DNA of 32,000 nucleotides from Candidatus Thorarchaeota archaeon (lineage in GTDB: Archaea > Asgardarchaeota > Thorarchaeia > Thorarchaeales > Thorarchaeaceae). Numbering within the stretch: the stretch's first letter is position 1; every line of letters begins with the position of its first letter. This document shows, one piece after another, positions 10,148 to 15,052 of the stretch. The DNA lies in contig SHMX01000008.1 in the NCBI GenBank assembly GCA_008080745.1, positions 1 through 32,000 on the forward strand, in the 5' to 3' direction. A program made the translations under genes and the position numbers. The notes below the pieces were generated by a model. The model was not told the DNA's origin. It did no database searches and saw only the letters and a list, made by a program, of their open reading frames with translations.

Positions 10148-11014
10148 TTGACTGAACTTGCCAGACAAACTGTTACATCGGAAACTCTGAATGATTGGAT
10201 ATTAGCGTACAATCTAGGCTCAAAGAGTCGATCCACTTCGGGATCTATTAGTGAGATTGAACTAAGATCCTTAATTGAGGCTGGTGTCGTATCTATTGAT
10301 GAATTTCAGATTGCCTATAATGGAGTGAAACCTGCATCAGCTATACGTCTCCGTTTTGATGAAAACAATACTGCACACCTCAGTGATATATCCGTAAGAT
10401 CAGGGCACCGTAAAGCACTCTATCATCTCTTGGATGCTACTCTTTTACAGTGCCGAAACAATGGCATATCTAGAGTATCAACCTGGACCACTGCGTCTGC
10501 ATCGCATACAAGTGATGTTCTTTCCACTTTCGTATTCGACGTTGAATGGATCAATGTACAACTAAAGAGTAATCTAATCGGTGTTAAAAATCCAGAATCT
10601 AACGTTCTTCCTGATGGTTTCTATCTAGAAGAACACACTAGGATGACTGAGTCAGATATTTCCACCTCTGTTCTTGACAAAGAACTGGACTTACTCTATA
10701 GACAATTCAAAGATCCACTTTTCCTGAAATTTCAAATCTATAATGAATGTATCAAAGATCCTGTTGTCACTGCTTTAGCTCAGAGAGGCATGAATTCAAC
10801 GGGATGGCTTAAATTTAGTCCTCTTACAGATCGAATCAATATTGAAGATTATTCAAATATCGTTTCAATGGTGTTGAGTATTTTTTCCCAAGAACGTGTG
10901 TCAGAAGTCAGAACTGAGATTGACGCAGGATCTCCTTTGAAAAAACTATTACAAATTCTAGGACTACGTCCAATCCTAACTTTGTTTAACATGACTTTTA
11001 CTTTAGCCTACTAA
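10148..11014 (+). CDS. Hypothetical protein, possible tandem GNAT-like fold
   Basis: Pattern LSDISVRSGHRKALYHLLDATLLQCRNNGISRV resembles GNAT motif A/B; weak. Confidence 0.5.
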   Translation: MTELARQTVTSETLNDWILAYNLGSKSRSTSGSISEIELRSLIEAGVVSIDEFQIAYNGVKPASAIRLRFDENNTAHLSDISVRSGHRKALYHLLDATLLQCRNNGISRVSTWTTASASHTSDVLSTFVFDVEWINVQLKSNLIGVKNPESNVLPDGFYLEEHTRMTESDISTSVLDKELDLLYRQFKDPLFLKFQIYNECIKDPVVTALAQRGMNSTGWLKFSPLTDRINIEDYSNIVSMVLSIFSQERVSEVRTEIDAGSPLKKLLQILGLRPILTLFNMTFTLAY

Positions 11015-11043
11015 TTTTATGTTTAGAAATTGTGTTTTTTTTA

Positions 11044-11273
11044 ATTGGCGCCAGTAAAGTCAGTGCGGATGAAAGCTAGAAAAGATAGATATACTACTAG
11101 ACAAAATACCTTTCTGTGTCTAAAGCCGGGAGGATGGCACAACGCGCCTTGACTAGTCTTGAGGCCATTGTTAGCAGCGTGTAGATTTATACTACCAGGA
11201 TGTGACCAGGCGTTGCTATGACTTGGTAGCAGGAAAACCCAGGTGGGCGCATGAGCGCTCACCCCCTACCAAT
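11044..11273 (+). ncRNA. Candidate structured ncRNA, copy 1 (homologous to 13654-13924)
   Basis: GC-rich intergenic region; terminal helix ATTGG/CCAAT; hairpins TAGACA/TGTCTA, TGCTAT/GTAGCA and GGTGGGCGC-ATGA-GCGCTCACC; G-U pairs favour the plus strand; colinear motifs shared with copy 2. Confidence 0.55.
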
Positions 11274-11274
11274 C

Positions 11275-12366
11275 TTATTCTTTGATCTCCTCATATCTGT
11301 GACATCGAACCCAATGTCTTGACTCTACTTCTCTTTGCTGGGGGACTTCTTCTATGCACCTATCTATTGCAAATTCGCATCGTGGGTGAAAGGGACAACC
11401 AGATGGAACATCAGTGAGGTCTGGTGGATCTCCTGGAATACCTCGTAATCGAGGACGCTTACCACCAGCTTTCATTCGCATCATGGCAATAGTGGGAAAC
11501 GAGCTCATGAGACCCATAGTATAAGGATGACCAGGGTGATGAAACATCTGTATTGCGTCTCCCACTTCCATGAGTTTACCGGCATACATCACTGCAACAC
11601 GATCTGCAATTTCTGCAATCACTCCTGCGTCATGACTGATTAGCATAAGTGATACATCGAAATCGTCACGTATCATTCGGAGAACATTAATGATTTGACG
11701 TTGGATTGTCACATCCAAAGCTGAGGTTGGTTCATCAGCAATCACAAGATATGGTCCAGATATTAACGACATAGCAATGAGTATCCTCTGTGCTTCACCA
11801 CCAGAGAAACTGCCAGGGTCTAAAACAAATCTGAATCCAGAGTCTGCTATTCGAACAAGATTGAGATATTCAAGAACCTGCTTCTTTAATTCGATAAGTC
11901 GGACATCTTCGTCATGAATCTCTACAGGTTCCCCGGTTTGAAACCCCACACTATATTGTGGATTTAACGCATGAGTGAGGCCTTGGGGAATCATGGATAT
12001 CTGCTTCCCCCTTATCTCTACTAGCTTCTCATCATCAAGAGTTGTAAGGTCCATTCCTTTGAAAATGATCTTCCCTCGTACTCCTGGTCGGTCACCTTCT
12101 TCTTGCCCCTTCTCGAATTTCTTTCGAAGACCTGGAATATTTGAAGAACCCGCAGCAAATTTTGCAACTCTATTGAATAACCCCATGATTGCGAGAGCTA
12201 ATGATGATTTTCCACAACCACTCTCACCAAGGATTCCCAGACATTCACCCTCTTTGATATCAAAAGAGACCCCATCTACGGCTTTTACGAATCCTTTCTG
12301 AGAAACATAGTATGCCTTGAGATCTTCAACGGATAGGAGTGTCTTCTCTTCAGTCATCATGCTCAC
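11275..12366 (-). CDS. Oligopeptide/dipeptide-type ABC ATPase (OppD/DppD-like)
   Basis: GESGCGKS, FSGGEAQR, IADEPT, ISHD and C-terminal HPY...GCPFHPRC. Confidence 0.92.
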   Translation of the reverse strand: MSMMTEEKTLLSVEDLKAYYVSQKGFVKAVDGVSFDIKEGECLGILGESGCGKSSLALAIMGLFNRVAKFAAGSSNIPGLRKKFEKGQEEGDRPGVRGKIIFKGMDLTTLDDEKLVEIRGKQISMIPQGLTHALNPQYSVGFQTGEPVEIHDEDVRLIELKKQVLEYLNLVRIADSGFRFVLDPGSFSGGEAQRILIAMSLISGPYLVIADEPTSALDVTIQRQIINVLRMIRDDFDVSLMLISHDAGVIAEIADRVAVMYAGKLMEVGDAIQMFHHPGHPYTMGLMSSFPTIAMMRMKAGGKRPRLRGIPGDPPDLTDVPSGCPFHPRCEFAIDRCIEEVPQQREVESRHWVRCHRYEEIKE

Positions 12367-12468
12367 ACTCGGAAATTATCCAGTACATATTAAGTAGTAC
12401 CTTTAGCGCCTATGGTCTTCCAACAAACGCTTTTTACATTGATTATATGTCCTAATTAGGTGGTTATT

Positions 12469-13590
12469 ATGTCTGTTCCAAAAGTATACTTCTCTGATCG
12501 AAAAACCTCTGCACACTACAATATGCTCGATAAATTAGAACACGTGTTCCAAGAATTAGGTCTCTCGGAACATATTCAAGAAGGTGATAAGGTCATGATT
12601 AAGACTCACATGGGTCTCTACGGAAATACGAATTACATTCGTCCAGCTTATGTAAGAAAGCTTGTTGAGCTTGTTAAACAGGCTGGTGGATTTCCTTTTG
12701 TAGCAGATACCTGTAGTCTTGGGTATGGCACTTCTCGTCCCTATGGTGGAAGAACTACTGCTCAAGATTATTACACCAGAGCTGAATTAAACGGATTTTC
12801 ACAAGCCACTGTAGGTGCCCCTATAATTTTGGCAGATGGATATTGGGGGTCTGATTTTCTAGATGTGTCTATTTCTGGAGATTTCATAACCTCTGTACCT
12901 GTTCCCTCTGCAGTATTTGACTGCGATAAAGTCATAATTCTCAGTCATTCCAAGTTTCACCATATAGGGATTGCAAGTGCTCTGAAGAACATGGGTGTAG
13001 GATTAGTGGCTAAGAAAGGCAAGACCGCTGTTCATTCTCCAAATGGCCTTGAGATTTATCCAGAGAAGTGCTTAGGCTCTGAGTGTTCTGAGTGTCTATC
13101 TGTCTGTCCTGTCCGTTGTATCACAGTTGCGAACACGGTAACGATAGATATTGATCGATGTATCCAATGTGGTCATTGTTCTGCTATCTGTACAAGTAAT
13201 GTAGAAGCTGGAGCTCTAAAAGTTACATGGGCTGGAGTTAACATGGCTGAAAAAATTGTGGAAAATACATTGGGTGTGATGGAATCCATCGGTCGTGACA
13301 GATTCTATTTTATCAATCTCGCTATGGATATATCCGATATGTGTGATTGTGTCTGTTACGCAGCTCCTCTTCTCATGCATGATTTAGGCATATTTGGGTC
13401 TAGAGATCCGGTTGCAATCGATGCAGCTACTGCTGATGCTATGAAGAAAGCAATGCCAAATAAGGCAAATCCAAATTCAGAACGTATTGCAACTCTTGTC
13501 GACAAATCGTCTGTATTCTTTGAACATAGTGAAAAAATCGGACTTGGTTCTAAGAAATTCGATTTGGTTTTCCTCTCGAGATCTGAATAA
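12469..13590 (+). CDS. DUF362 family protein with 4Fe-4S ferredoxin domain
   Basis: KVYF/KTHMG..GNT/HSKFH/ALKNMGVG/CDC motifs with inserted CLGSECSECLSVCP and CIQCGHCSAIC. GGTGG SD before ATG 12469. Confidence 0.85.
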   Translation: MSVPKVYFSDRKTSAHYNMLDKLEHVFQELGLSEHIQEGDKVMIKTHMGLYGNTNYIRPAYVRKLVELVKQAGGFPFVADTCSLGYGTSRPYGGRTTAQDYYTRAELNGFSQATVGAPIILADGYWGSDFLDVSISGDFITSVPVPSAVFDCDKVIILSHSKFHHIGIASALKNMGVGLVAKKGKTAVHSPNGLEIYPEKCLGSECSECLSVCPVRCITVANTVTIDIDRCIQCGHCSAICTSNVEAGALKVTWAGVNMAEKIVENTLGVMESIGRDRFYFINLAMDISDMCDCVCYAAPLLMHDLGIFGSRDPVAIDAATADAMKKAMPNKANPNSERIATLVDKSSVFFEHSEKIGLGSKKFDLVFLSRSE

Positions 13591-13613
13591 TTGATAATTT
13601 GCATGAGATGATA

Positions 13614-13933
13614 TGCACAGGGGTATGCAACAGCTGATCAAAACGTGGATAAGCTTGGACATATATCAATTGACTCTTTGATATATTGACCTGTATACGG
13701 TAGCACCGGCAGCTCGGCCACCGGGAGTGTGTGCAGATACCATCAGAAGGGAGGGTCATTAGGAATCATGTCTAAGATATAGTATGCCGCCGTGAGTTGC
13801 ACGGAGGCACAAAACGCCTGTGAAGAGGAAGTAAGACATCACCAGTCCTCTGTGACCAGTGATGCAGCCTCAATGAAGCAGGAAACAGACAGCAGATGAG
13901 GACTCCTGTCCACCTTTGTCCAAGTTCTGTGCA
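13614..13933 (+). ncRNA. Candidate structured ncRNA, copy 2 (core 13654-13924), with group I-like core motifs
   Basis: GC-rich, no credible ORF; nested long-range helices TGCACAG/CTGTGCA and CTTGGACA/TGTCCAAG; several internal hairpins; colinear motifs shared with 11044-11273. Confidence 0.6.
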
Positions 13934-13999
13934 ACGGTTATTCCGCTCCATTAAGTATTAAGGTGCTTTTGCACCAATATCTTTTTGGAGACCATTTGC

Positions 14000-15052
14000 A
14001 TGCCACCAGTGGAACCGGGACCAATACGTGACTTTATACTAGCATTAGATGCAGGTGCTATCTTCTATAGTATCCTCTATATGTCCATATTACTTCACCG
14101 TTGGTATCGGGATCGACTAAAGAAGGAACAGGACATTCGCTTTACTTGGAGTCTTTTCTTCCTGGGATTATTAGGGAACCTACTCGCCTTCTCGTTTACT
14201 CGCCTAACAGAATTATCTACTTTTGTGGAGATGTTATTGATTCGTGGGGGGTACATTTCGTTAATTTTGGCAGGAACTTCATTCTTTGCTGTTTTGGAAA
14301 GAGTCGCTGATTTTCAGAGCAAGAATCTATTTAGTAAGGTATTTGCAGCTTCGTGTTCACTCGCTCTAATTATCCCATTAGATTATGTTGGTGTCTTAGC
14401 CTTCTTGATGTCCACCATTGCACTAGGTGGGTTTGTTCATTATCTGTATCTATCAATCAAACGGAGTACTGGTCTTGTTCGACGCATTCTTATACGTATC
14501 ATATTCGGAATTATTGTAGGTTTTTTGGCATATCTGATTAGAGTAGAGCCTTTGATACTGCTCATGGGGAATATACTTCATATTCTCTCAGGTATTCTTC
14601 TTGCATTGAGTCTAATTCTTGTTGGAGAGGCTATACTCGACTCACCAGCACTGGATGAGCTTGATTGGCAGCAGCATATACTAGAACTCTATGTGACCCA
14701 TAATAGTGGTTCAATGTTGTATTCTCATTCTTTTACGGAAACAGATGAAACTAGAAGTGCTCTGACGGCTGCTAGTATATCTGGGGCTCAATCATTGTTC
14801 CAAGAGATTACTTCTACTGAATCAGGTTTTGACACACTTTCTCTTGGCGATAAACACCTATTGTTTGCCCATCGTGAGAATTTCACAGCTGTCCTCCTTA
14901 CTCAACGTCCCTATGGTGTCTTACTGGATAAGTTGAATGAATTTGCCGATGATTTTCAACTAGTATATGGTCCTGCTATAGACAACTTTCGAAGCAGAGT
15001 AACTGAGTTCAATTCCGCTTATGATCTTGTAGAGATGGTATTCTTATCATAA
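14000..15052 (+). CDS. Multi-TM membrane protein with C-terminal longin-like domain
   Basis: About 6-7 TM helices then ILELYVTHNSGSMLYSHSF...ISGAQSLFQEI...LLDKLNEFADDF, the usual longin secondary-structure pattern. GGAG before ATG 14000. Confidence 0.65.
   Translation: MPPVEPGPIRDFILALDAGAIFYSILYMSILLHRWYRDRLKKEQDIRFTWSLFFLGLLGNLLAFSFTRLTELSTFVEMLLIRGGYISLILAGTSFFAVLERVADFQSKNLFSKVFAASCSLALIIPLDYVGVLAFLMSTIALGGFVHYLYLSIKRSTGLVRRILIRIIFGIIVGFLAYLIRVEPLILLMGNILHILSGILLALSLILVGEAILDSPALDELDWQQHILELYVTHNSGSMLYSHSFTETDETRSALTAASISGAQSLFQEITSTESGFDTLSLGDKHLLFAHRENFTAVLLTQRPYGVLLDKLNEFADDFQLVYGPAIDNFRSRVTEFNSAYDLVEMVFLS

Follow-up and report, generated by a model that had tools for sequence, protein, structure and literature searches.

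The stretch of DNA analysed here, hereafter the window, comprises positions 1 to 32,000 of the forward strand of contig SHMX01000008.1 in the assembly GCA_008080745.1 of a Candidatus Thorarchaeota archaeon. Two intergenic, non-coding elements within it stand out from their flanks by their G+C content (0.44-0.50 and 0.47-0.53, against 0.34-0.40). The first, copy 1, opposes a convergent gene for an OppD/F-like ABC ATPase, and the second, copy 2, lies between a DUF362/ferredoxin gene and an unassigned open reading frame (ORF). A preliminary description of this DNA had already pointed out the composition, the intergenic position and the convergent gene, all of which we could confirm, and had proposed that both elements are homologous copies of one new RNA family. 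Our results give another picture: the two copies are non-homologous. Copy 2 is a gene-less miniature derivative of the IS607 family of insertion sequences (IS) that keeps both ends and a complete TnpB guide-RNA scaffold. Copy 1, separate from it, is a well-supported candidate for a single-copy structured RNA family that is found in one Thorarchaeota family only and is absent from Rfam. This interpretation, which covers the non-homology, the nature of copy 2 and, for copy 1, its conservation, covariation, RNA strand and phylogenetic distribution, has in our view a probability of about 0.8. In what follows, G000 denotes the assembly of this genome (the window is its contig C8), G001 the sister species, and G008 and G023 related genomes.

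Conservation and structure of copy 1

In the sister species, the only other species of the genus, copy 1 has a syntenic ortholog with 79% identity over 254 nt, compared with 72-74% for the coding flanks. A two-sequence nhmmer profile gave weak colinear matches in other genera, located 3' of distant homologs of the upstream ORF, and twelve syntenic members from seven genera carry the ordered blocks of the element in intergenic gaps. Our comparison of the locus covers 38 members. Regarding the distribution of the family, we built a covariance model of the 68-position 3' module of copy 1 (R2) and searched 86 genomes of one Thorarchaeota family (16 genera), together with 125 genomes from 26 other families of the phylum. 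R2 gave exactly one match per genome in 59 of the 86 family genomes, representing 11 of the 16 genera, and no match in the 125 genomes of the other families. The element is also present in all seven named 'Candidatus Thorarchaeota' metagenome-assembled genomes (MAGs), including SMTZ1-45.

We scanned the window with the 4227 models of Rfam 15, and the part that holds both copies (10900-14100) at E up to 10. No match in the window reached a gathering score; copy 2 gave a sub-threshold match to RAGATH-18 and copy 1 none, even at E up to 10, nor did the loci of 11 relatives at E up to 1. The RNAs of the signal recognition particle (SRP) and of RNase P were located elsewhere in the genome (G000 C2:303444-303753, 94.1 bits, and C12:4769-5102, 163 bits), so copy 1 is neither of them. 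Other candidates were discarded as well. A coding sequence is ruled out by the 1-nt indels between the sister species, and the 73-aa ORF on the minus strand belongs to no family. By eye, there is no conserved ACA box and there are no C or D boxes, as H/ACA or C/D small RNAs would have, and a small ORF following the GGAGG word would lack a conserved start codon.

The element begins with a hairpin, P-D, whose stem changes from genus to genus while remaining complementary (Table 1). Other genera have GUCUCA/UGAGAC, GUUUCAG/CUGGAAC, GCUCU/AGAGC, GUCUU/AAGAC, GCGUCUUG/CAAGAUGC, UCGAC/GUCGA or UUCAAG/CUUGAA in its place. Since MAFFT did not hold the register of this stem across genera and shifted one row, we measured its covariation with a permutation test in which flanks are swapped between genera. 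The own flanks of each member gave -10.0 kcal/mol, compared with -6.95 kcal/mol for swapped ones, and none of 2000 permutations was as low (P<0.0005). The near-invariant loop may be read as CC-[GGGA]-GG, that is, as a GNRA-type tetraloop on two C-G (or U·G) pairs, and in many members it is plausible by eye that loop bases GGGAGGA pair with the pyrimidine-rich spacer before the terminal hairpin, forming a pseudoknot. The core is 105-199 nt long across genera, with a central domain that differs in length and sequence.

The terminal hairpin, G, provides the evidence for the strand. Its stem occurs as GUGGGCGCC/GGCGCUCAC, GUGAGCGCC/GGCGCUCAC and GUGGGUGCC/GGCGCCCAC, and the tally over members gave 29 G·U pairs and zero A·C inside the stem; the A·C mismatches that were counted come from best-hairpin windows that were shifted by one base or had landed on an adjacent hairpin. 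G·U pairs with no A·C counterpart identify the plus strand as the RNA strand. The folding energies of the core go in the same direction: in 15 representatives compared with shuffles, the mean z-score was -1.94 on the plus strand, with all values negative, versus -1.11 on the minus strand.

Several observations weigh against this picture of copy 1. The single-sequence fold of the whole 241-nt interval has a z-score of -1.17, which is not significant, and the pairings of the central domain are model predictions. Two sequencing runs are listed as carrying the stretch, both of DNA (contig) and from one marine-sediment study, and no RNA run is listed. In addition, most genera conserve blocks A and B, upstream of P-D, and the AT-rich word that follows them is bordered by inverted repeats, so that the RNA could start further upstream, with that word as one of its loops. 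In the RNAalifold consensus, the pairing UGGC/GCCG between block A and the P-D motif has one of four pairs with a single compensatory change and none in the other three.

Table 1. Coordinates of copy 1, copy 2 and the genes next to copy 1 in the window (BRE, B recognition element; aa, amino acids)
Feature	Position	Strand	Basis
Copy 1, structured RNA candidate	about 11115-11272	+	conservation, covariation, strand evidence
Upstream block A, TTGGCGCCA	11045-11053	+	conserved in most genera, missing in two
Upstream block B, GCGGA	11065-11069	+	conserved in most genera; 5' of TATA-like box
BRE/TATA-like box, AGAAAAGA-TAGATATAC	11078..11094	+	purine-rich word, then AT-rich octamer, 38/38 members
Hairpin P-D, stem UGUGUC/GGCACA, loop with near-invariant motif	11115..11141	+	stem varies by genus, complementarity kept
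P-D loop motif GCCGGGAGGA	11125..11134	+	GCCGGGAGGA in 19/38, GCUGGGAGGA in 12/38, four minor variants
Variable central domain, one to three hairpins	11142..11219	+	includes GCAGCG/CGUUGC at 11174-11179 and 11211-11216; folds predicted per genus
Conserved block F, GACUUGGUAGCAGGAAAACCCA	11220..11241	+	alignments; part of R2
Terminal hairpin G, GGUGGGCGC-AUGA-GCGCUCACC	11242..11263	+	stem GUGRGYGCC/GGCGCYCAC in members examined, loop free
Convergent neighbour, orphan OppD/F-like ABC ATPase	11275..12366	-	Pfam ABC_tran + oligo_HPY
Upstream neighbour, divergent two-domain GNAT-like protein, 288 aa	10148..11014	+	ESM Atlas
Copy 2, whole miniature IS607-family element, ~316 bp, gene-less	13622..13937	+	BLAST copies and common boundaries
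G-rich left junction GGGGT (consensus RGGGT)	13620..13624	+	before ATGCAAC in 13/13 copies; sequence further upstream diverges
Left-end subterminal repeats TGGATA, TGGACA, 10 bp apart	13647..13662	+	inverted counterpart of right-end repeats; contain CTTGG arm
Right-end subterminal repeats TGTCCA x2, 10 bp apart	13908..13923	+	contain CCAAG arm
TnpB guide-RNA (reRNA/omega RNA) scaffold, 155 nt	13783..13937	+	R1 158.6 bits
RAGATH-18-like scaffold core	13817..13884	+	RF03064 23.6 bits
Predicted guide-coding flank of copy-2 reRNA	13938..13957	+	inferred from TnpB guide-RNA architecture

A putative RNA gene and other readings of copy 1

What kind of element this family represents is a separate question. 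The most likely answer, to which we give an even chance, is a new gene for a small structured RNA, transcribed from a promoter of its own and 105-200 nt long across the family (~150-160 nt here). The octamers of the putative promoter are AT-rich in every member (TATATATA, ATTATAAT, AATATTAT and the like), and with mis-picked windows set aside, the distance from the end of the octamer to the loop motif is 25-36 nt in all 38. Combined with the usual archaeal geometry, this spacing would place the start site at the foot of P-D. According to this model, the box would set the start and P-D would display the near-invariant loop, probably as a recognition surface for a protein or RNA partner. Lineage-specific hairpins, the conserved purine-rich block, the pyrimidine-rich spacer and the strong GC hairpin would follow in this order, and the last of them would end the RNA beside the stop codon of the convergent ABC ATPase gene, serving 3'-end formation and stability.

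One could argue that copy 1 is instead a cis-acting 3' region, either a shared or bidirectional terminator and stabiliser of the ABC ATPase gene and of whatever is upstream, or an element in the 3' untranslated region of the upstream mRNA. The position of hairpin G fits such a role, because it adjoins the 3' end and stop codon of the ABC ATPase gene in 38 of 38 loci (66-87% aa identity, with only a 35-aa remnant in one locus). Block F would also form a U-run past the hairpin on the minus strand in several genera, and block A comes close behind the upstream stop codon in many genomes. Against this, the wobble pairs of hairpin G and P-D fit the plus strand only, the element stays constant while the upstream gene changes between genera, and the TATA-like box is kept at a fixed distance. 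A terminator does not account for an architecture conserved over 100-200 nt with an invariant loop and a covarying stem either, and we consider this explanation unlikely.

Just as unlikely, in our judgement, is a longer RNA of ~230 nt that would begin at block A (11045) and contain the AT-rich word as a conserved hairpin loop, with no promoter. It would explain why both upstream blocks are conserved in most genera, why inverted repeats of differing sequence surround the AT-rich word in many members and why A and B form a 7-bp stem in one genus. In two genera, however, block A and the flanking inverted repeat are missing and the rest is kept. Moreover, the word fits the archaeal BRE/TATA form, and in every member its spacing points to a start at the base of P-D. 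Both alternatives are weakened by the evidence on the strand, by the change of upstream gene between genera and by the constant spacing.

Such a gene would resemble the archaeal small RNA genes with BRE/TATA promoters, among them those of SRP RNA and RNase P RNA. Like them, copy 1 is single-copy, has a TATA-like box at constant spacing, folds into a compact G+C-rich structure with a strong hairpin at the 3' end, and is better conserved than the neighbouring coding DNA. Unlike them, it matches none of the 4227 Rfam models and is limited to one Thorarchaeota family; it also evolves faster than SRP RNA, as the two species of the genus are 79% identical in copy 1 and 95% in SRP RNA. There is one local likeness to the genome's own SRP RNA, since window positions 11047-11080 and G000 C2:303492-303527, in the Alu domain, agree in ~30 of 34 bases (TGGCGCCAGUAA..CAGUG.CGGAUGAAA). 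In the sister species the resemblance is weaker, and other genera lack it, so that it may be due to chance or to local conversion. The Archaea_SRP model has no match at copy 1, and the Alu-like segment is 5' of the TATA-like box.

Regarding the genes around copy 1, no permease or binding-protein gene lies alongside the ABC ATPase gene. The 288-aa upstream protein has no Pfam or NCBIfam match and was related to GNAT acetyltransferases by the ESM Atlas (feature score 0.97; predicted-structure TM 0.66-0.83). Its identity to the sister-species protein is only 54%, and tblastn with it detected no counterpart at the copy-1 locus of several genera.

The loop motif of P-D is also found in another setting. 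The exact 10-mer GCCGGGAGGA has three occurrences in 3.16 Mb, and one of them forms the apex of a ~70-nt long hairpin RNA candidate on the plus strand (G000 C11:36509-36580; GGUGGCGCC...GCCGCCGGGAGGACGAAC...GACGCCAC). This hairpin matches no Rfam family; its identity to the sister-species sequence is 96%, and BLAST detects it in at least six genera. It has a CitMHS transporter gene on one side and, on the other, the gene of an NYN-domain RNase and then alaS. Counting C[CU]GGGAGG hairpins across the genome gave 96 sites and no clear signal. Copy 1 and the C11 hairpin might be ligands of one Thorarchaeota-specific partner, and copy 1 might work with the ABC ATPase, as an RNA-protein system without described counterpart, a proposal that we regard as rather improbable. 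The copy-1 family, with an invariant loop that recurs in the C11 hairpin, offers a concrete target for study. To our knowledge, few non-coding RNAs have been catalogued in Asgard archaea, and copy 1 is the more useful of the two results: a well-delimited family with a covarying stem, evidence for the RNA strand, a probable promoter and a clear-cut phylogenetic range.

Likeness between the two elements

The words that led to the idea of one family are present. A script confirmed that TGTCTAA (11117 and 13769), GGCACAA (11136 and 13806), TGTGACCAG (11201 and 13851) and AGCAGGAAA (11228 and 13877) occur exactly and in the same order in both elements. Such a colinear chain is rarer than expected by chance, with P ~0.001 when dinucleotide shuffles serve as background and ~0.003 when genomic segments of similar G+C, cleared of true repeats, are used. 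This rarity counts against non-homology and leaves room for a very remote kinship; it comes from a naive test on a pair chosen post hoc among the many possible pairs in 32 kb. Besides, CAGGAAA(A/C)C precedes the 3' hairpins in both families.

The other comparisons gave a different result. Neither local nor semi-global alignment scores between the copies were significant (P 0.35 and 0.28), and MAFFT left the motifs unaligned. A covariance model of the copy-2 guide-RNA scaffold (R1), searched with filters off and E up to 10, recognised copy 2 with 158.6 bits and had no match at 11044-11275. On the loci of 30 copy-1 relatives its only matches were six weak, dispersed ones, the best with 9.3 bits (E 0.33); most are on the opposite strand and none aligns credibly with the element. 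The further features cited in favour of one family also vanish when the sister species is considered: its copy 1 reads GACAC-ACGGGCAAT where the window has the GGCACAA..CGCCT motif (12/14 identical between the copies), UUACU in the loop instead of ATGAG, and has lost the CCAAT arm of the terminal helix ATTGG/CCAAT. What had been seen as a compensatory change of that helix in copy 2, CTTGG/CCAAG, belongs to the subterminal repeats of a transposon. Within the scaffold family, TGTGACCAG sits in a hairpin that varies. Finally, copy 1 is single-copy and syntenic, and neither BLAST nor nhmmer gave it a relative within the genome, whereas copy 2 is mobile and has ~16.

According to these results, a single new structured RNA family with a common fold and variable spacers is very improbable. 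Searches for further homologs found relatives of each copy, as two separate families, and the preliminary proposal of a new multi-copy non-coding RNA, ribozyme or non-autonomous mobile RNA is divided between them. Copy 2 is indeed a multi-copy, non-autonomous mobile element with a structured RNA on board, without being new in kind; copy 1, conserved and unmatched in Rfam, is a candidate structured RNA that is single-copy and unrelated to copy 2. Likewise, the impression that no known family is involved stands for copy 1 and fails for copy 2, which carries an IS607 TnpB guide-RNA scaffold. The case illustrates that short colinear words shared by G+C-rich intergenic islands are weak evidence of homology.

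Copy 2 and its TnpB-bearing relatives

BLAST against the whole assembly located relatives of copy 2 at ~16 loci on other contigs; 12 are near-full-length (85-97% identity), and in 4 the similarity is limited to the 3' ~150 nt. When the copies are aligned together with their flanks, the boundaries of the family (marked here by a slash) are ..RGGGT/ATGCAACAGCTG (..GGGT/ATGCAAC) on the left and ..CTGTGCAACGG/ (..TGCAACGG/) on the right, and copy 2 has GG at both junctions (GGGGT/.. and ..CAACGG/). The GGGGT of the left junction could be either the transposon-adjacent motif or target side, or else the outermost bases of the left end. There is no transposase or TnpB gene inside copy 2: the overlapping ORFs of 59-69 aa have no family matches, and tblastn retrieved only the last ~37 codons of TnpB, which overlap the scaffold.

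The sole intact TnpB of the assembly is encoded at G000 C2:235701-236936 (412 aa, with the Pfam domains HTH_OrfB_IS605, OrfB_IS605 and Cas12f1-like_TNB). The 3' 155 nt of copy 2 recur there (C2, 236825), overlapping the 3' end of the TnpB ORF, and the IS copy that bears this gene (C2:235582-236978) keeps both ends, with the left one 119 bp before the TnpB start. Two other loci in the genome are internal-deletion derivatives of this element. The ~15 gene-less copies and fragments would rely on the C2 TnpB and, for movement, on an unseen recombinase. In related genomes, the 3' part of the element is repeated many times with 66-79% identity, and several of these repeats are directly 3' of a TnpB gene (59-65% aa identity). 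In G008 and G023, genes of 192 and 199 aa with a Resolvase domain precede tnpB and overlap its start, which is the IS607 arrangement. The consensus fold from a 25-sequence alignment of the 3' part has compensatory changes in 14 of 32 predicted pairs.

RAGATH-18 RNAs (RF03064) are the scaffolds of the guide RNAs (reRNAs) in IS607 TnpB systems, and their co-occurrence was reported for this TnpB family alone (Cell Res 2024, PMC11061315). The copy-2 scaffold agrees with them in lying at the right end, 3' of TnpB in the autonomous copy and in the relatives, in its RAGATH-18-like words (CCUGUG..GAGG / CCUCAAUGAAGCAGGAA) and in the serine-recombinase tnpA that overlaps tnpB in its full relatives. It differs in its archaeal (Thorarchaeota) host, in lacking both tnpB and tnpA in copy 2 itself, and in overlapping the end of the tnpB reading frame, where the reRNAs of PMC11061315 are described as separate from the coding sequence.

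Three results are less favourable to the assignment. The 13 copies in the genome that RF03064 recognises score 20-27.6 bits, below its gathering score of 44.9; no tnpA was found between the left end and the TnpB gene of the C2 copy; and no empty site was obtained for copy 2, which bears on the exact crossover bases, as the sister species offers a single match, a solo right-end remnant at a non-syntenic site. This remnant of the same IS (..CCCAAGTTCTGTGCAACGGTTATTTCGG) is at L011:1501-1546 (G001 C71), and the miniature family is otherwise absent from the sister species.

In TnpB guide RNAs, the guide adjoins the right end on its outer side. By analogy with the IS607/IS605 TnpB systems that have been studied, transcription through the right end of copy 2 would yield an RNA whose last ~20 nt come from the flank as a guide, and this RNA could be used by the TnpB made at the C2 locus. 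For copy 2 to move, a serine recombinase would have to be provided in trans.

The kind of element to which copy 2 belongs is already known. As in other miniature non-autonomous IS (mini-IS607 of the type of miniature inverted-repeat transposable elements, and PATE-type derivatives of IS200/IS605), the ends are kept, the genes are deleted, a genome has many copies, and a single autonomous copy is the potential source of TnpB. Copy 2 departs from them in retaining the whole scaffold, so that each copy could, by analogy, still make a guide from its own flank. It thus represents an archaeal (Asgard) case of a miniature IS607 element that keeps the whole TnpB guide scaffold, and bears on the spread of guide-RNA-bearing relics and on the possibility that one TnpB serves many copies. 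A group I intron-like ribozyme core, suggested by short by-eye resemblances to the R and S elements, has a practically negligible probability, given that no Rfam intron matched even at E up to 10, that the repeat has transposon ends and ~16 loci with no host gene consistently interrupted, and that its 3' half is homologous to sequence overlapping TnpB genes.

As a minor observation on the assembly, six contigs of G000 (C14-C19) are short, and five of them (C14, C15, C17, C18 and C19) have 62-65% G+C, compared with 39-43% elsewhere; these five are probably contamination of the MAG.

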